DNA of 64,000 nt, from assembly GCA_964555685.1 (NCBI GenBank), contig CAZKTO010000004.1, positions 10,858 to 74,857 of the forward strand, written 5' to 3'. The translations under genes were made by a program, and so were the position numbers. The notes beneath the pieces were generated by a model, which made no database searches, had not been told where the DNA came from, and saw only the letters and a program-made list of their open reading frames with translations. Origin of the DNA: an uncultured Dehalococcoidia bacterium. GTDB lineage: Bacteria; Chloroflexota; Dehalococcoidia; SHYB01. Within the stretch, counting starts at the first letter, position 1. Each line of letters starts with the position of its first letter. Positions 7,322 to 62,464 of the stretch are shown in pieces.

Positions 7322-7473
7322 GAAGCTTCCCGCAGCTTGCTGCGGGGCTTCTGGTGTCCGAACAATCGTGATCACAGCAGGAAGAGTATGGCCCTCTCCC
7401 TCCTGTCCCTCTCCTGCAAGGAGAGGGACGATACCCCCTTCCTCTTTAGGCAAGGGGGCCAGGCGGTTAGGGC
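7322..7473 (+). repeat. Composite repeat: GAAGC..CCGCAGCTTGCTGCGG..CTTC hairpin plus a type-A bipartite element (7391..7473)
   Basis: Near-identical inverted copy at 62312..62464. The type-A core is also close to the 18130..18215 copy. Confidence 0.85.
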
Positions 7474-17999: not shown

Positions 18000-18114
18000 C
18001 TGCCCTCTCCCCCGTCCCCTCTCCGGCACGGAGAGGGGCGCACCGTATCCCCCTTCCCTCGCAGGGAAGGGGGCCAGGAGGTTAGGGCCGGTCTTGCCAC
18101 CAGAGTTTAGGCAT
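18000..18114 (+). repeat. Type-A bipartite element (18000..18089) plus a 25-nt tail identical to the 5' end of the thiolase-like gene
   Basis: CTGCCCTCTCCCCCGTCCCCTCTCCggcacGGAGAGGGGCGCACCGTATCCCCCTTCCCtcgcaGGGAAGGGGGCCAGGAGGTTAGGGCC, then GGTCTTGCCACCAGAGTTTAGGCAT. Confidence 0.9.
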
Positions 18115-18129
18115 CCTGTGCAGCCCTCG

Positions 18130-18215
18130 CTGCCCTCTCTCTCCTGTCCCTCTCCTGAAGGGAGAGGGACGATACCCCCTTCCTCTTTAGGGAAGGGGGC
18201 CAGGGGGTTAGGTCC
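18130..18215 (+). repeat. Type-A bipartite element (variant shared with 7391 and 62312)
   Basis: CTGCCCTCTCTCTCCTGTCCCTCTCCtgaagGGAGAGGGACGATACCCCCTTCCTCTTTAGGGAAGGGGGCCAGGGGGTTAGGTCC. Confidence 0.9.
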
Positions 18216-24762: not shown

Positions 24763-27342
24763 TCACTGCAACACCCCCAGCGCATCCAGCTCGTCGACGC
24801 GCCGGGGCGGCAGGCCCAGCTCCCGCTCCAGCGCATCCCGCGTGTGCTCGCCCAGGAGCGGCGTCCCCCGTTGCACCACGTGCGGCGAGCGGCTCATCAG
24901 CCATGGCGGGCGCATGCTCACCGGCCGGCCCAGCTTGGCGTGATCGAGGGTCAGGAAGAGCCCGCGCTCCTTCAGGTGCGGGTCCTCGGCGATGCGCCGG
25001 TTGCTCATGGACGGCATGGCGGCCACGCCCGCCGATTGGAGCAGCCGCGTCACCTCGTCGGGCGTCTGGCCCCCCGTCCACGCCGCCACCACCGCCTCCA
25101 GCTCGCTCTGGCGCTGGCGGCGGCCGGCCGCCGTCGCGAACCGGGCGTCGCGGGCCAGGTCCTCGCGGCCCATGGCCAGGCACAGGGCCCGCCACTCCTC
25201 GTCGGTCGCCACGGCGACGCTCACCCACTGGTCAGACCCCGACACGTCGGGGCGCCCCGCGCACCGGAAAACGCCGTGGGGCGCCATCCGCGGGTGGCCG
25301 TTGCCCAGCCGCGGCGGGAGCCGGTTCGCCAGGCCGACCTCGGCGAAGGTGTGCCCGAAGAGGCAGGCGATGGAGCCGTACGAGGCCATGTCGATGTGGC
25401 GCCCCCGGCCGGTGCGCGCTCGTTCCAGGAGCGCCGCCAGGACCGCCAGGGCGATGGTGGCCCCCGCTCGCATGTCCAGAGGCAACTGGAGGAGCGCCGG
25501 CGGGCCGTCCGGGTAGCCCGTGATGGCGCTGAGCCCGCTCAGCCCGGAGAAGACGGCGGCGACGCCGGGGTAATCTTTCTGGGGCCCCGCCGGGCCGAAG
25601 CCCGAGGCCGAGACGGTGACGATCGAGGGGTTCATCTGGCGGAGCACGCCGTGCCCCAGGCCCAGGTCCTCCATGACCCTTGGCCGCATGTTGTCCACCA
25701 CCGCATCGGAGATGCGGACCAGGTCGTGCACCAGCTCTAGCGCCTCGGGCCGCTTCACGTCCAGCGCCACGCTGCGCTTGTTCCAGTTGAGCGCGTGAAA
25801 GTCAGGCGAGGCATCGGGGTCGCTCCCGGACACGACGACGAAGTCCAGGTAGCGGGCGATGTCCAGCCGCTGGCGCGACTCGATCTTGATGACGTCCGCC
25901 CCCAGGCATGCCAGCAGGTGCGTGGCGATGGGCCCGGCGGCCACCCACGTGAACTCGACGATGCGATAGCCCGCCAGCGGTAGAAGGGGACCCTTCGGCA
26001 AGATAGGTCCTTCCCCTTCGAGACTCAGGGTCAGGACTCGCTTCGCTCGGCTCAGGGCAGGCTCTGACCCCACCCCGACAGGTTGGGCCGACTCGCCGGC
26101 CTTCCCGGCACGGGAAGGGGGCAGCCGTGGACCCGGTCCCTGGCCTTCGGCCGGCCCCTCGCCTTTGGGGGAGGAGAGGCCGAACTCGTCCAGGACCTGC
26201 TCCGTATGCTCGCCCAGACGCGGCGCACGCGGAAGGAGGCCGCTGGCGCCGGGCAGGAAAGAGAGGGGCCTGGGCAGCGTCACGCGACGCCCGCCGGGCG
26301 CCTCGACCTCGCCGAAGAGGCCGATGGCCTTCGCCTGGGGCGCCTTGAGCACCTTGTCCGCCGTGGGGAACCAGGCCACGAGCATCCCCCGGCTCTCCAG
26401 CATCTCGAAGACCTCTTCCCCCGTCTTGTCCGAGAGCCAGGCGATGATCTCCGGGTGGACGGCGGGCAGGTTCGCCCGGCGCTGGGCCGCGGTGACGAAG
26501 CGCGGCTCCTTCACCCACTCGGACCGGCCCATGAGCGCGGCCAGCCGCTCCCACTGCTCCTGCCGGTGAAAGGTCAGGAAGACCCACCCGTCCTTGCACG
26601 GGAAGAGCGTCGTGTTGGGCACCTCAACGGTGTAGCGGCCCGAGAGCTGGCCGCGGTTCAGCCAGAGGTCCATGGCGATCCGGGAGGCGTAGACCTCGGC
26701 CTCCCAGCGCGACAGGTCGATGTGCTGGCCGGCGCCGTGGGCGTCCCGGACGAAGAGGGCGGCCAGCACCGCGTCGGCGGCGAGCAGCCCCGCCGTGTAG
26801 TCGGCGATGAGGCCGCCCGCCTGCATCGGCGGACGCCGCGCGTAGACCTGCGGCGGGTGTCCGATGACCGGGGGCAGCATGTACGCCTCGCCGCCCGCGT
26901 GGGCGATGGTGAGGCTCTCGGCCCGCCATCCGGCGCAGGGGCCCGTCTGCCCGAAGGGCGTGATGGAGACCTGGACTAGCGACGGATTACCGGCGCTCAA
27001 CGACGCGTAGTCGAGCCCGAGACGCCGGGCCTCCTCCGGCGCCAGGTCGTCGATGAGCACACCGGCCCGGGCGGCCAGACGGCGCAGGGTCTCGCGCCCC
27101 TCGGCGCCGCGCCAGTCGAGGGCCACGCTCTCCTTGCCGGCGTTGCAGTAGAGGTAGAGCCCGCTGCACTCGGGGTCGGGGCCCGTGAGGGGGAAGGGCC
27201 CGTGCGCCCGCGACGGGTCGCCGCCGGTGGGCTCCTCGATCTTGACGACCCGCGCGCCCAGCTCGGCCAGCAGCCGCCCGCAGTAGGGCCCGGCCACGTG
27301 GGAGGCGAGCTCCAGGACAAGCGCGCCGGCTAGCGGTTGCAC
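24763..27342 (-). CDS. 859-aa tandem fusion of two family-III (CaiB/BaiF) CoA-transferase modules joined by a ~55-aa repeat-derived linker
   Basis: Module 1 starts MQPLAGALVLELASHVAGPYCGRLLAELGARVVKIE. Module 2 starts ...LPLAGYRIVEFTWVAAGPIATHLLACLGADVIKIE. There is no stop between them. The linker DNA (~26002..26175) contains GGCTCAGGGCAGGCTCTGA-type repeat sequence. Confidence 0.8.
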   Translation of the reverse strand: MQPLAGALVLELASHVAGPYCGRLLAELGARVVKIEEPTGGDPSRAHGPFPLTGPDPECSGLYLYCNAGKESVALDWRGAEGRETLRRLAARAGVLIDDLAPEEARRLGLDYASLSAGNPSLVQVSITPFGQTGPCAGWRAESLTIAHAGGEAYMLPPVIGHPPQVYARRPPMQAGGLIADYTAGLLAADAVLAALFVRDAHGAGQHIDLSRWEAEVYASRIAMDLWLNRGQLSGRYTVEVPNTTLFPCKDGWVFLTFHRQEQWERLAALMGRSEWVKEPRFVTAAQRRANLPAVHPEIIAWLSDKTGEEVFEMLESRGMLVAWFPTADKVLKAPQAKAIGLFGEVEAPGGRRVTLPRPLSFLPGASGLLPRAPRLGEHTEQVLDEFGLSSPKGEGPAEGQGPGPRLPPSRAGKAGESAQPVGVGSEPALSRAKRVLTLSLEGEGPILPKGPLLPLAGYRIVEFTWVAAGPIATHLLACLGADVIKIESRQRLDIARYLDFVVVSGSDPDASPDFHALNWNKRSVALDVKRPEALELVHDLVRISDAVVDNMRPRVMEDLGLGHGVLRQMNPSIVTVSASGFGPAGPQKDYPGVAAVFSGLSGLSAITGYPDGPPALLQLPLDMRAGATIALAVLAALLERARTGRGRHIDMASYGSIACLFGHTFAEVGLANRLPPRLGNGHPRMAPHGVFRCAGRPDVSGSDQWVSVAVATDEEWRALCLAMGREDLARDARFATAAGRRQRQSELEAVVAAWTGGQTPDEVTRLLQSAGVAAMPSMSNRRIAEDPHLKERGLFLTLDHAKLGRPVSMRPPWLMSRSPHVVQRGTPLLGEHTRDALERELGLPPRRVDELDALGVLQ

Positions 27343-27415: not shown

Positions 27416-27856
27416 TTACGCCTTCCGCCACTGGGGCAGGCTGATGTCCGGCGCCACGTCCTCGAACGTCACCTGGACCGGCATCCCGATGCGCACCTCG
27501 GCGGGCCTCACGTCCATGAGCCGCCCCACCATGAAAACGTTCCCCTCGTCCAGCTTGACCACGGCCACTGGCAGCGGCACCTTGTCGGCGAAGTACGGCA
27601 GCACCGGGTGGTAGGCGATGGTGTAGCTCCACACGATGCCCCGGCCGCTCATGGGGGCCCACTCGTAGCGCATCGAGTGGCAGTCGGGGCAGGCCGGACG
27701 CGGGTAGTAGCGGTAGCTCCGGCAGTCGGAGCAGCGCTGGATGCGCAGCTCGTGCCGTCGGCAGTGCTCCCAGAACTCGTGGTTGTCCCACCCCGGCTGG
27801 GGCAGCGGCAGGCCGGCGTAGGGCGCGAAGGGTGCGTTGGGGTTGGTCTGTGGCAT
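27416..27856 (-). CDS. DUF35 protein (rubredoxin-like Zn ribbon plus OB fold), partner type for thiolase-like enzymes
   Basis: CSDCRSYRYYPRPACPDC zinc ribbon followed by GRGIVWSYTI...VAVVKLDEG..MPVQVTFE. Confidence 0.85.
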   Translation of the reverse strand: MPQTNPNAPFAPYAGLPLPQPGWDNHEFWEHCRRHELRIQRCSDCRSYRYYPRPACPDCHSMRYEWAPMSGRGIVWSYTIAYHPVLPYFADKVPLPVAVVKLDEGNVFMVGRLMDVRPAEVRIGMPVQVTFEDVAPDISLPQWRKA

Positions 27857-27865
27857 GACGGTGTT

Positions 27866-28330
27866 TTACCTCTCCCCCTTCCCCTCTCCCGCAGGGAGAG
27901 GGGCGATCTGTGTTCCCCCTTCCCGCGCCGGGAAGGGGGCCAGGGGGTTAGGTTCCACGCTGGCTAGGTCAGCGATCCGAGCTAGAACGGCAGCGAGGTT
28001 TGCCCTGATGTCCCTGTTCGGCACGCGGAGAATCCTCAGATCTCGGGCCGCGAGGAGCTGATCACGCGCCGCATCATATTCCTTTTGACGTTGGTGGCTC
28101 GGACTATCCACTTCCACAACAAGGGATGCCGCGTGACAGTAGAAGTCTACGATAAAGCCATCGATCACTTGCTGGCGGCGGAAGTGGAGGCCGTGCAGTC
28201 GGTTAGCCCGTATCGCCTGCCAGAGAGTCTGTTCCTCTGGTGTCATATAGCGGCGCAACGACTTGGCAGCCTCAAGCTTCTCGGCTGCTACCTTTTGTCC
28301 GACCACTACTCCACGTCTTTCCATACGCAA
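27866..28330 (-). CDS. DUF559 (Vsr/restriction-endonuclease-like fold) protein, AT-richer, with its C-terminus read out of a type-A repeat
   Basis: LRRYMTPEEQTLWQAIRANRLHGLHFRRQQVIDGFIVDFYCHAASLVVEVD...RDQLLAARDLRILRV is typical DUF559. The last ~30 aa (NPLAPFPAREGG...) are repeat translation. Confidence 0.8.
   Translation of the reverse strand: MRMERRGVVVGQKVAAEKLEAAKSLRRYMTPEEQTLWQAIRANRLHGLHFRRQQVIDGFIVDFYCHAASLVVEVDSPSHQRQKEYDAARDQLLAARDLRILRVPNRDIRANLAAVLARIADLASVEPNPLAPFPAREGGTQIAPLPAGEGKGER
27869..27956 (+). repeat. Type-A bipartite element
   Basis: CCTCTCCCCCTTCCCCTCTCCcgcagGGAGAGGGGCGATCTGTGTTCCCCCTTCCCgcgccGGGAAGGGGGCCAGGGGGTTAGGTTCC. Confidence 0.9.
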
Positions 28331-28340
28331 CCTTGTTCGA

Positions 28341-28428
28341 CCTCTCCCCCGGCCCCTCTCCTGAATGGAGAGGGGCGCACCGTATCCCCCCCTTCCCCAC
28401 TGGGGAAGGGGGACGGGGGGTTAGGTCC
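28341..28428 (+). repeat. Type-A bipartite element
   Basis: CCTCTCCCCCGGCCCCTCTCCtgaatGGAGAGGGGCGCACCGTATCCCCCCCTTCCCCactGGGGAAGGGGGACGGGGGGTTAGGTCC. Its TTA (28421..28423) is the thiolase-like gene's stop codon on the other strand. Confidence 0.9.
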
Positions 28429-29611
28429 CCCTCCTCAAGATAAACGCTCCCGTGGGGTCGCTGTTGGCCGCCATGACGACGACGGCGCGGGCGTTGGGCG
28501 CCTGCGTCGTCGAGGCGCCGCGGATCTGGCGCACCGCCTCTAGCACGTTGTTGAAGCCGTGGATGAAGGCCTCCGAGTGCTGCCCGCCGTGGGTGTTCAG
28601 GGGCAAGCGGCCGCCGGGCCCCTCGAGGGCGCCGCCCTCGGAGAAGGGGCCGGCCTCGCCCCGGCCGCAGAAGCCCAGGTCCTCGAGGGCCAGGAGCGCC
28701 ATGGGCGTGAAGTGGTCGTAGACGTACGCCGCGGCGATATCCTTGTGCTTGAAGTCCGACTGCTCGAAGAGCCTTCGGCCCAGGCCCGCGGCCATGCGGT
28801 CGCGCGGGAAACGGAACCAGTCGCTGAGCTGGTAGTGGGCCGGCTGCACGTGCTGGGCGAAGGCGTGGACCACGGCCGGCGGCTGCGGCATGCTCCGGGC
28901 CTCCTCGGCGCGCGAAAGCACGACGGCGCAGGCCCCGTCCGTCTCGATGCAGCAGTCGAGGAGGCGCAGCGGGTCGGCGATCATGCGCGATTGGTGGTGG
29001 TCCTCCGGGGTGATGGGCGTGCGCATGACGGCGTTGGGGTTGCGGGAGGCGTGCTTGCGTAGCGCCACGGCCACGTTGGCGAAGTGGTCCTCCGTCCAGC
29101 CGTAGTCGTGCATGAGGCGCCGGGCGATGACCGCCATCTCCTGCGCCGGGCTCTGGATGCCGAAGGGCACGTGGTACTGGCCGTGGCTCGCGATGCGCGG
29201 CTCGACCTTCTCCCACGGGCGCCCGCCCTCGCTCGTACCGGGGCCGAAGACGGACCTGCGCCCCCTCGCCCGCGAACGGTAGGCGACGAGGTGCCTGCAC
29301 AGCCCGGCGGCGACGCCCAGCGCCCCGTGTCCAACGACAGCGGCGTAGGCCCCGCCCCCGTGGGGCTGCGTGACATAATAGCCGGCGTTCCCGATGCCGA
29401 GGAGCTGGTAGAGGTGGTTGTTCAGCCCCTCCACCTGGAGGTTGTAGCAGGAGACGCCATCAATGTCTCTGGGTGTGAGGCCCGCGTCGGCGATGGCCTT
29501 GAGGATGGCCTCGGCGGCCATGCTCCACTCGGACCGGTTCAGCCCCTTCCCGTACTCGGTCTGGCCGATGCCGGTGATGGCGACCCCGTCTTGCCACCAG
29601 AGTTTAGGCAT
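28421..29611 (-). CDS. Thiolase-like protein (SCP-x/Ltp-type, 396 aa), paralogue 1
   Basis: MPKLWWQDGVAITGIGQTEYGK..., ...DCCIETDGACAVVL..., ...LNTHGGQHSEAFIHG... . ATG 29611 is preferred because upstream is repeat DNA. Confidence 0.85.
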   Translation of the reverse strand: MPKLWWQDGVAITGIGQTEYGKGLNRSEWSMAAEAILKAIADAGLTPRDIDGVSCYNLQVEGLNNHLYQLLGIGNAGYYVTQPHGGGAYAAVVGHGALGVAAGLCRHLVAYRSRARGRRSVFGPGTSEGGRPWEKVEPRIASHGQYHVPFGIQSPAQEMAVIARRLMHDYGWTEDHFANVAVALRKHASRNPNAVMRTPITPEDHHQSRMIADPLRLLDCCIETDGACAVVLSRAEEARSMPQPPAVVHAFAQHVQPAHYQLSDWFRFPRDRMAAGLGRRLFEQSDFKHKDIAAAYVYDHFTPMALLALEDLGFCGRGEAGPFSEGGALEGPGGRLPLNTHGGQHSEAFIHGFNNVLEAVRQIRGASTTQAPNARAVVVMAANSDPTGAFILRRGT

Positions 29612-29618
29612 GCTTATC

Positions 29619-29732
29619 GCCCTCTCCCCCAACCCCTCTCCTGAAGGGAGAGGGGCGATTCCCCCTTCCCTACCAGGGAAGGGGGCCAGGGGGTTAGGGT
29701 CTCCCCCGGTCCTGCCACCAGAGTTTGGTCAT
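29619..29732 (+). repeat. Type-A element (29619..29701) plus a tail that duplicates the thiolase 5' end (29708..29732)
   Basis: GCCCTCTCCCCCAACCCCTCTCCtgaagGGAGAGGGGCGATTCCCCCTTCCCtaccaGGGAAGGGGGCCAGGGGGTTAGGGTC ... GGTCCTGCCACCAGAGTTTGGTCAT. Confidence 0.9.
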
Positions 29733-29741
29733 GCTGGTTCC

Positions 29742-30443
29742 TTACGGCCGGCTCCGATAACACGTGTCACACAACGGCTTCGCATATGTCACCATCGTCT
29801 CTTTGCCGCAAGCGTGGCAGAACTTCTCCGGGTAGTTCTCGTTTTTCCACTGTGCCCACTCGTTGTAGCAATTGTCACAAAGCGGCTTCTCTTGGTCTAA
29901 GGCAATGTCAGCGCGACAGCGGATGCAGACGCCCTCAGGGGCTCTCGGATCACGGGCGCGGGCGCTTGGTCGGCTGGTTTGCTGTTGAACGTTCTCCACC
30001 GGCTCAGCGAGGCGCCTTAATGTGTTGTCCACGTAATCACGGATGTGTGTTTGAAGCGCTGGGTCAGCTACAAGGATCGCGATCTCTCGCGAATTCGCGA
30101 ACGACCCTTTGGTGAAGTTAATAGAGCCGATGACCACCGAATGTTCATTGAGATATATCTTCGCGTGTAGACCAGGGACGGATTGAACCTTTATCCGGTT
30201 CTCCTGCAACCATTCGATGTCGGCCCGCCGATCCAGTTGTTTTTGGGGGTCGTCCTCATACCTGACCAAGAACTCGACACGTACGCCGGATTTTGCTGCT
30301 ATACGTAATTCGTCTTTTGCATGGCCCCATAGGCCCAGGTAAGGAGTGACAATGACGGCGTGCCGTTTGGCGTCGCGGATAACACCGAGCACCGCAGAAT
30401 CGACTTCATCGTCCGAATAGAACGCCTTTCGGGATTGCTCCAT
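29742..30443 (-). CDS. Phospholipase-D-fold (HKD) nuclease-like protein with a C-terminal four-CxxC zinc-ribbon region; clearly AT-richer than its neighbours
   Basis: GLHAKIYLNEHSVVIGSINFT (H-x-K-x4-D/N...GS.N). The C-terminus reads CIRC...CDNC...CHAC...CDTC. It starts 7 nt after the stop of the upstream thiolase-like gene. Confidence 0.75.
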   Translation of the reverse strand: MEQSRKAFYSDDEVDSAVLGVIRDAKRHAVIVTPYLGLWGHAKDELRIAAKSGVRVEFLVRYEDDPQKQLDRRADIEWLQENRIKVQSVPGLHAKIYLNEHSVVIGSINFTKGSFANSREIAILVADPALQTHIRDYVDNTLRRLAEPVENVQQQTSRPSARARDPRAPEGVCIRCRADIALDQEKPLCDNCYNEWAQWKNENYPEKFCHACGKETMVTYAKPLCDTCYRSRP

Positions 30444-57863: not shown

Positions 57864-57974
57864 GGACGGGGGACCAGGAGCCGCCACCTCATTTCTTGGC
57901 TGTCCATCCCCAGTCCCAAGCTCCGAGACCCTACTGAGGCGTGCATTGTGCGCTAAACCAGCCCTGTTTCATCT

Positions 57975-58059
57975 TCTCTCTCCCCTGGCGGGAGAGAGCC
58001 AGAGAGAGGGGGATCACCCTCTCCCTAGCCCTCTCCCGTCGAGGGAGAGGGAGTTTAGT
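57975..58059 (+). repeat. Type-B double-hairpin repeat (CTCTCCCCtggcGGGAGAG ... CCCTCTCCCgtcgaGGGAGAGGGAGTTTAG)
   Basis: Second copy in the same orientation at 60381..60469. Confidence 0.75.
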
Positions 58060-62311: not shown

Positions 62312-62464
62312 GCCCTAACCCCCTGGCCCCCTTCCCTAAAGAGGAAGGGGGTATCGTCCCTCTCCTCGCAGGAGAGGGACAGGAGGGAGAGGGCCGCATG
62401 GCTCGTGCCGCAATCGCGATTATTGAGGCACCCAGAAGCCCCGCAGCTTGCTGCGGGGTGCTTC
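62312..62464 (-). repeat. Composite repeat (type-A element 62312..62394 in reverse orientation plus the GAAGCCCCGCAGCTTGCTGCGGGG..CTTC hairpin); inverted copy of 7322..7473
   Basis: The reverse complement of 7322..7473 aligns along the whole length with only scattered mismatches in the spacer. Confidence 0.85.

Follow-up and report, generated by a model that had tools for sequence, protein, structure and literature searches.

Why a small nuclease gene should be framed by two copies of a structured repeat, inside an operon whose genes are normally adjacent, is the question raised by a locus of an uncultured Dehalococcoidia bacterium (assembly GCA_964555685.1; 3.03 Mb, 68% GC, 170 contigs). The locus lies in a stretch of 64,000 nucleotides of contig CAZKTO010000004.1 (positions 10,858 to 74,857), called the window here, to which all plain coordinates refer. 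At window 27862-28428, a block of 567 bp holds an intact open reading frame (ORF) of the DUF559 family between two same-orientation double-hairpin repeats of about 90 nt, designated type-A. The block separates a thiolase-like gene from its DUF35 partner gene, and the minus-strand order is thiolase-like, type-A, DUF559, type-A, DUF35. The original prediction, made from the letters of the window alone, had named this arrangement, and all of its parts were located as described:

28421..29611 (or to 29632), minus strand: thiolase-like host gene, upstream of the insertion (ORF and homology).
28334..28428, minus strand: upstream type-A copy (nhmmer 4.5e-19; fold z -6.0).
27866..28330, minus strand: DUF559 ORF, predicted Vsr-like nuclease (PF04480, E=1.6e-31).
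27959..28324, minus strand: DUF559 nuclease core, residues 1-122 (PF04480, 3HRL and 3R3P profile matches, Foldseek).
27866..27958, minus strand: repeat-encoded C-terminal tail of the DUF559 ORF, PNPLAPFPAREGGTQIAPLPAGEGKGER followed by the stop (translation; predicted disordered).
27862..27956, minus strand: downstream type-A copy, in the same orientation as the upstream copy (nhmmer 4.7e-20; fold z -5.4).
27416..27856, minus strand: DUF35/ChsH2-type host gene with zinc ribbon and OB-fold, downstream of the insertion (ORF and homology).
29608..29702, minus strand: third type-A copy, a solo one, at the thiolase gene's 5' end (repeat match; 31-nt direct duplication around it).

The explanation favored here, at a probability of roughly 0.55, is that the block is a horizontally acquired selfish cassette, a nuclease-repeat partnership resembling that of repetitive extragenic palindromic (REP) sequences and REP-associated tyrosine transposases (RAYTs) and built on an unrelated enzyme, which would act on the repeat. 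Bacteria have a widespread class of orphan repeats, and this DUF559 nuclease is the best candidate for their partner. What was observed is the insertion, the conservation of the unit in other genomes, the co-occurrence of gene and repeat, the predicted fold, and the repeat structure with its covariation; from these we infer that the nuclease acts on the repeat, and by which route recombination follows.

Empty sites were sought by querying the DUF35 protein in 40 relatives. In eight genomes of the same family, with DUF35 orthologues 59-75% identical to the protein here, the stop of the orthologous thiolase gene lies 1-19 nt from the DUF35 start, without the repeat and without DUF559. With the two genes so close in these eight relatives, the block is an insertion specific to this lineage, and it separates a thiolase/DUF35 pair that is normally adjacent, as had been proposed. 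It is also lower in GC content, the DUF559 ORF having about 57% versus 68-75% in its surroundings. An independent 619-nt Logan contig from a sediment metagenome run spans 27817-28435 with zero differences, and the reads and contigs of four metagenome runs confirmed the assembly and gave nothing more.

The signals needed by the interrupted operon are found within the repeats. The thiolase ends here in AFILRRGT-stop, versus AFILRS[DN]-stop in relatives; its final codons and stop are now repeat sequence, and the stop TAA (28421-28423) falls within the upstream copy (CCTAACC). The G-rich end of each flanking repeat (GGGGGAGAGG) lies 12-20 nt before the start codons of DUF559 and DUF35. In the upstream copy it supplies a GGAGAGG similar to a Shine-Dalgarno (SD) sequence ahead of the DUF559 start, which is likely the ATG at 28324, and the downstream copy, ending 12 nt before the DUF35 ATG, offers the same SD-like GGAGAGG. 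The DUF559 ORF reads across the whole downstream repeat, and its stop codon (27866-27868) lies 9 nt before the DUF35 ATG. With a repeat-borne stop, SD-like G-runs and read-through of the ORF, the operon is therefore still translatable after the insertion.

The repeat itself has an elaborate layout. On the gene strand the upstream copy reads GGACCTAACCCCCC..CCCCCTTCCCC/GGGGAAGGGGG..CCCCTCTCC/GGAGAGGGG..GGGGGAGAGGTCGAAC, and the type-A consensus is GACCTAACCCCCC-NN-CCCCCTTCCC-N5-GGGAAGGGGG-AGA-spacer-GCT-CCCCTCTCC-N5-GGAGAGGGG-YTG-GGGGAGAGGTCA. Two CT/GA hairpins are present, with a C-rich tail before the first and a G-rich tail after the second, and each tail mirrors the adjacent arm. The pattern of a homopyrimidine/homopurine hairpin with a mirror third strand is found as GGGAAGGGGG-CCA-GGGGGTTAGG and GGAGAGGGG-YTG-GGGGAGAGG. 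The two tails are mutually complementary and form imperfect 12-bp terminal inverted repeats (TIRs; GACCTAACCCCC / GGGGGAGAGGTC) matching at 10 of 12 positions. As a single strand, the element is predicted to form a three-way junction with the two tails paired together (ViennaRNA, which does not model triplexes; z -5.4 to -6.0).

Substitutions in the copies follow this layout. The covarying pair of hairpin 2 is T:A in 62 copies, C:G in 21 and mismatched in 3, and the G-rich tail tracks the stem-2 change in 7 of 21 copies versus 0 of 62 (Fisher P = 3e-5, no correction for phylogeny). Cassette copies have an A:T terminal pair and most solos of this genome have C:G; 4 mismatches were counted. The pairings are supported because stem-2, tail and terminal positions covary, and the type-A structure is, as judged from these sequence changes, under selection. 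The contrast originally drawn between this unit and transposons with TIRs was thus misplaced, since each copy has short covarying TIRs of its own.

The element is abundant in its genome. A strict type-A pattern has 7 matches in the window versus 0 in 100 shuffles, and a hidden Markov model (HMM) built from 12 copies, all of this genome, gives 153 matches in the whole genome, 69 of them full-length. The two flanking copies are 73-77% identical to each other. In overall identity the cassette repeats are equally close to foreign cassettes and to local solos (about 0.75 each); only the terminal A:T state brings them closer to the foreign type.

The gene between the repeats encodes a DUF559 protein. 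Its only Pfam match is PF04480 (108.8 bits versus a gathering cut-off of 20.6; E=1.6e-31; residues 19-120), and the closest of 1123 homologues are merely 59-69% identical. The family-invariant residues D60, E71, D73, H77 and D84 are kept, and D60, E71, D73 and H77 are invariant in the alignment of homologues. The AlphaFold (AF2) model is confident for residues 14-122, with a predicted local distance difference test score of 84-94 in the core, and shows the repeat-encoded tail as disordered. By this model, the core is predicted to have the Vsr-like PD-(D/E)xK nuclease fold. The top Foldseek match is 3HRL, a DUF559 entry from structural genomics (TMt 0.87; profile search 2e-28). The closest characterized structure is the catalytic domain of the homing endonuclease I-Bth0305I, 3R3P (TMt 0.77, root-mean-square deviation 2.3; HMM E=5e-3), and matches to Vsr structures themselves are weak (TM 0.36-0.47; 1VSR and 1CW0 at E 0.5-0.9).

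The pairing of this gene with this repeat extends far beyond one bacterium. A scan of species-representative genomes gave 568 relatives of this DUF559 subfamily, of which the best 79 loci were examined; these belong mostly to Nostocales and other cyanobacteria, Chloroflexota/Anaerolineae, Latescibacterota, Poribacteria and Gemmataceae. Long direct repeats surround the DUF559 gene at most of them, and the type-A HMM of this genome matches 85 of 87 loci. At 39 of 83 non-redundant loci, the gene has a near-full type-A copy on either side, oriented as here (E down to 1e-21); 15 more have partial copies on both sides, and 2 have none at all. The homologues in two-sided loci are 50-64% identical to the nuclease here, and the downstream copy begins 6-7 nt past the nuclease core (interquartile range across loci). 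Many homologues share the tail PNPPxPFPxREGG..GEGPGE, which is a translated type-A-like repeat. Gene neighborhoods and flanking DNA are unrelated between most loci. Three metagenome contigs (L027, L030 and L033) carry the direct-orientation repeat/DUF559/repeat unit in type III CRISPR or HepT/WYL (toxin) neighborhoods, and L027 has compensatory changes between its two repeat copies. The repeat-DUF559-repeat unit in direct orientation is a real, recurrent and cross-phylum one; further units of this kind, which the original prediction had suggested looking for, recur around the closest homologues in other phyla.

Some features of these loci were observed in passing. The cassettes of L027, L030 and L033 each lie just upstream of a gene of 126-129 amino acids starting MILLNF(S/A)HPLT, and in L033 the entire cassette is flanked by 33 nt copied from that gene's 5' end (1287-1320 and 1992-2024). 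In the Nostoc loci L044, L052, L055, L066, L085 and L089, the HIP1 palindrome (GCGATCGC) is equidistant outside both cassette ends; the palindrome may belong to the repeated unit, or its position may be due to chance. An orthologous empty or solo site of an Anabaena cassette was sought in 150 related genomes and had no match, the flanking gene not being conserved.

Copy numbers of gene and repeat differ widely. Of eight large genomes, seven have the cognate gene in single copy and the eighth, from Latescibacterota, has three matches; the module pattern occurs 2-74 times per genome. Among 121 genomes of the class Dehalococcoidia, nine have at least 5 module matches and 104 have none; eight have a DUF559 protein at least 50% identical to the one here, and five genomes combine the two (Fisher P = 3e-5; 2.7e-4 if the source genome is left out; neither corrected for phylogeny). 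The four other genomes of the class that are richest in modules (23-47 matches, overlap counted) all have the cognate gene; the source genome has 130 matches. At the level of Nostocaceae (151 genomes), the 28 with the gene, 27 in single copy and one in two copies, have a median of 18.5 modules (minimum 2, maximum 218), versus a median of 0 in the 123 without it (Mann-Whitney P = 1e-11, again without correction for phylogeny). The DUF559 gene had been suggested to be the nuclease-encoding relative of the solo copies; the co-occurrence of gene and solos fits this part of the suggestion, and mobilization of the repeats by the nuclease, its other part, is put forward only conditionally here.

A sequence of events can be proposed on these grounds. 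The cassette would have inserted into the gap of 1-19 nt in the thiolase/DUF35 operon, where the repeat may be tolerated by the host through the upstream stop codon, the SD-like G-runs and the disordered protein tail that it gives. The nuclease would recognize the type-A element, folded or by sequence, and would nick or cut at type-A, after which recombinational repair would copy DNA between type-A sites. The flanking repeats would serve as homology arms, so that the gene stays framed by two copies, and the copying may multiply or homogenize the solo type-A copies. The expected outcome would be one resident enzyme gene and many dispersed repeats, with a homing-endonuclease-like enzyme in place of a transposase.

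Several points weigh against this explanation. The thiolase host gene is itself bracketed by two direct type-A copies in a repeat-dense operon, and the local arrangement alone is therefore weak evidence. Both flanking repeats are intact after the insertion, unlike in classical homing, which destroys its target, and the two are old in this genome (77% identical to each other). A subfamily of 30 type-A copies, at least 95% identical, has been amplified recently (e.g. window 7392-7472 and 62313-62393), and it has spread within larger mosaic repeats instead of as free units of type-A; its left flanks are of three kinds and its right flanks of four, and these are shuffled among the copies, as in bacterial interspersed mosaic elements (BIMEs), with type-A as the junction. 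At the level of Nostocaceae, 21 of the 123 gene-less genomes keep 10-74 modules, and G080, a relative within the class, lacks DUF559 entirely yet has 13 variant modules; repeats thus persist without the enzyme. The co-occurrence statistics ignore phylogeny. No consistent target-site duplication was found around solos or cassettes; among 69 solos three have long, variable ones, as does one cassette out of 39. Empty-site or solo variants sought in the reads and contigs of four metagenome runs were not seen, at a depth of 3-7x and with contigs breaking at repeats, and no DUF559 homologues were found in plasmid and phage collections. Moreover, to our knowledge, no DUF559 protein has a known nuclease activity or a known site of binding or cutting.

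Much of this would be expected if the DUF559 gene were only a passenger, a linked selfish or neutral ORF with no action on the repeats, and type-A a REP-like element or a MITE (a miniature transposable element with inverted repeats), moved by host functions or an unidentified transposase; the repeats might lend the gene expression signals or hitch-hiking. The persistence of repeats in many gene-less genomes, the TIRs that type-A carries itself in the manner of a MITE, the recent burst of 30 copies within mosaics and the bracketed thiolase all agree with it. A passenger would not be expected, however, to keep the two-sided architecture, the orientation, the spacing of 6-7 nt and the frame across phyla at 50-64% identity, and separate DUF559 subfamilies pair with separate module families. 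Nor is any transposase tied to these repeats, either here or in published work on triplex motifs (PMC4666352). This alternative is considered unlikely, and it is the strongest of those weighed.

A somewhat less probable alternative is that the enzyme is a caretaker, beneficial to the host or addiction-like, which would process hairpin, triplex or junction DNA of type-A by its structure, limit damage and be co-selected with the repeats. A gene in single copy among tens to hundreds of repeats suits such a role, triplex motifs have been linked to genome instability (PMC4666352), and Vsr relatives recognize distorted DNA (PMC3239194). It leaves unexplained, however, why the gene is nested between two copies and why it lies in a lower-GC insertion in unrelated contexts, and the gene is missing from many repeat-rich genomes.

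The repeats could also act at the RNA level, as a stabilizer, terminator, processing site or antitoxin-like RNA in the DUF559 transcript, the dispersed copies being unrelated REP-like RNA elements. Their place within the transcription unit, the translation of the downstream copy and the strong predicted folds are in line with this, but a scan of the region against Rfam matched no family and gave only sub-threshold microRNA noise, solo copies have no clear bias in orientation relative to neighboring genes, and the near-invariant cross-phylum sequence and mirror tails suit a recognition site for DNA or protein better than a generic RNA hairpin. An RNA-level role is accordingly regarded as improbable. 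That two copies of an abundant repeat, of which the window has more than 10, all at gene junctions of one operon region, came by chance to enclose an ordinary small gene is hardly credible given the same architecture around homologues in dozens of unrelated genomes, the hairpin modules framing all five DUF559 genes of this genome and the empty sites in relatives. Two analogies were tried and dropped: that with integron attC sites, there being no integrase, and that with type III toxin-antitoxin systems, which the dispersed solos do not fit.

The remaining DUF559 genes of this genome extend the pattern in a modified form. Five DUF559 loci are present, and all are framed on both sides by modules composed of a hairpin and a mirror tail; the relatives' DUF559 genes are likewise framed by hairpin modules. 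It might have been expected that type-A would also accompany the other genes in this genome, which was not the case: the other four are of other subfamilies and are framed by other module families, which also have solo copies. One of them (contig C34:1330-2060) divides a composite hairpin element exactly into its two halves; that element is found empty, with its halves abutting, at window 57974-58053 and at C68:374-453. Two near-identical DUF559 copies, C17:46548-46862 and C70:9022-9336, have an in-frame TGA at a conserved Trp codon and differ in their downstream flanks; they represent either a duplicated broken copy or a codon that is read through. The unit upstream of these two, about 75 nt in length, has about eight solo copies.

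Duplications of host sequence were observed beside several elements. Long ones are found at solo 29608-29702 (31 nt), at another solo (24 nt) and at the cassette of L033 (33 nt); long target-site duplication as a general signature of insertion was rejected, since it is absent from most solos and cassettes. The duplication around solo 29608-29702 (29584-29614 and 29705-29735, 87% identical) comprises the thiolase ATG and 8 codons, and a third copy of this 5' fragment lies at 18089-18115 between tandem type-A copies (18003-18213), where no thiolase gene follows. At the C34 cassette, the acyl-CoA dehydrogenase gene downstream has about 90 nt of its 5' end duplicated on the upstream side. Type-A seems to have been copied along with adjacent host sequence in the case of the thiolase 5' fragments.

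Two neighboring ORFs of the same region are also unusual. At window 29742-30443, on the minus strand, a low-GC (51-58%) ORF encodes a nuclease of the phospholipase D (PLD) family, NucT/DrmC-like, with a C-terminal tail of a double CxxC zinc ribbon. It lies between two thiolase paralogues and adjoins a type-A copy, and this operon has probably received it as a second insertion of a foreign nuclease. The ORF at 24763..27342 (minus strand, 859 amino acids) contains two family-III CoA-transferase domains and a linker (…PKGEGPAEGQ…LPPSRAGKAGE…); at the DNA level (about 25990-26180) the linker is a decayed double hairpin resembling type-A, translated in frame, and the ORF has the look of two genes that a repeat has joined.

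A broader proposal, held more tentatively than the cassette explanation itself, is that DUF559 nucleases are dedicated protein partners of intrastrand-triplex/hairpin repeats (the BoxC/TMECO class) and, by nicking or cutting the folded element, drive recombinational copying of their own genes and of solo repeats. They would then make up a new mobile or selfish class, comparable to REP/RAYT but with a homing-endonuclease-type enzyme, that extends over cyanobacteria, Chloroflexota, Latescibacterota and other groups. For DUF559, a very large family whose function is unknown, the pairing with a repeat gives a testable hypothesis, and triplex-type repeats (BoxC/TMECO and the G/C-rich motifs of cyanobacteria) have had no associated protein since they were first described. 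A nuclease-plus-repeat unit of fixed geometry may explain the origin of these repeats and why they mark unstable loci. The locus also suggests a tolerance strategy, by which selfish DNA could persist within operons through supplied stop and SD signals and a translated disordered tail, and a nicking enzyme specific for sequence or structure could serve as a laboratory tool. No published account of a conserved DUF559-repeat cassette was found, and a full-text search of the DUF559 literature gave nothing on repeats. The repeat class and the protein family are each known as orphans; their linkage as a conserved cassette is what was not found in print.

Several known systems can be compared with this unit. 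The Vsr repair endonuclease belongs to the same superfamily, and some sources label the homologues Vsr; however, the structural match is weak, no cytosine (dcm-type) methyltransferase gene is adjacent, the protein is much shorter and its genomic behavior is different. The IS200/IS605 insertion sequences, to which the original prediction had likened the block, share hairpin-forming ends and the lack of long TIRs across the whole unit. The likeness goes no further: there is no Y1/HUH transposase (TnpA) or TnpB, only the predicted Vsr-like nuclease, and the two ends are direct copies of one element, each with its own TIRs. A MITE with an autonomous partner is similar in that short, TIR-bounded, structured elements in many copies are accompanied by a rarer gene-carrying form, and the gene of the C34 DUF559 subfamily is in the exact middle of an element also found empty. 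In the type-A cassette, however, the gene lies between two complete elements, with no transposase and no consistent target-site duplication.

The EDxHD homing endonucleases provide the best characterized match to the predicted structure in the catalytic fold of I-Bth0305I. This Vsr-like enzyme makes double-strand breaks with 2-nt 5' overhangs and spreads via recombinational repair (PMC3239194). By analogy, a selfish-gene lifestyle with spread by double-strand-break repair and flanking homology may be shared. Unlike I-Bth0305I, the protein here has no N-terminal DNA-binding region of about 160 residues, only a core of 122 amino acids and the repeat-encoded tail; its gene lies between genes and in no intron or intein, and the presumed target repeat is intact on both sides.

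Among known repeats, type-A comes closest to intrastrand-triplex motifs (BoxC/TMECO), in a survey of which Holder et al. 2015 (PMC4666352) sought mobility genes and found no mobility or enzyme gene. Type-A resembles these motifs in its homopyrimidine/homopurine hairpin followed by a mirror-repeat third strand, and the motifs are likewise G/C-rich, intergenic, highly conserved, abundant in cyanobacteria and linked to rearrangements. It differs in having two modules in inverted order, bounded by TIRs and framing DUF559; a triplex in type-A is a layout predicted from its sequence.

The REP/REPIN-RAYT systems, or REPtrons (PMC3116915, PMC3733652), are the nearest parallel to the unit as a whole. 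The differences lie in the parts: a predicted Vsr-like PD-(D/E)xK nuclease here in place of a Y1/HUH transposase, flanking copies that are direct here and inverted there, and an element of about 90 nt with two hairpins, TIRs and mirror tails compared with a palindrome of 20-40 nt with a GTAG/CGTC head. Moreover, the DUF559 gene occurs in varied contexts and looks horizontally acquired. The organization is held in common. In both, a usually single-copy enzyme gene is flanked by its cognate structured repeat, the repeat is dispersed as tens to hundreds of solo copies, and enzyme subfamilies are matched to repeat families; gene and repeat co-occur across genomes here as well, if imperfectly, as the 21 gene-less genomes with repeats indicate.

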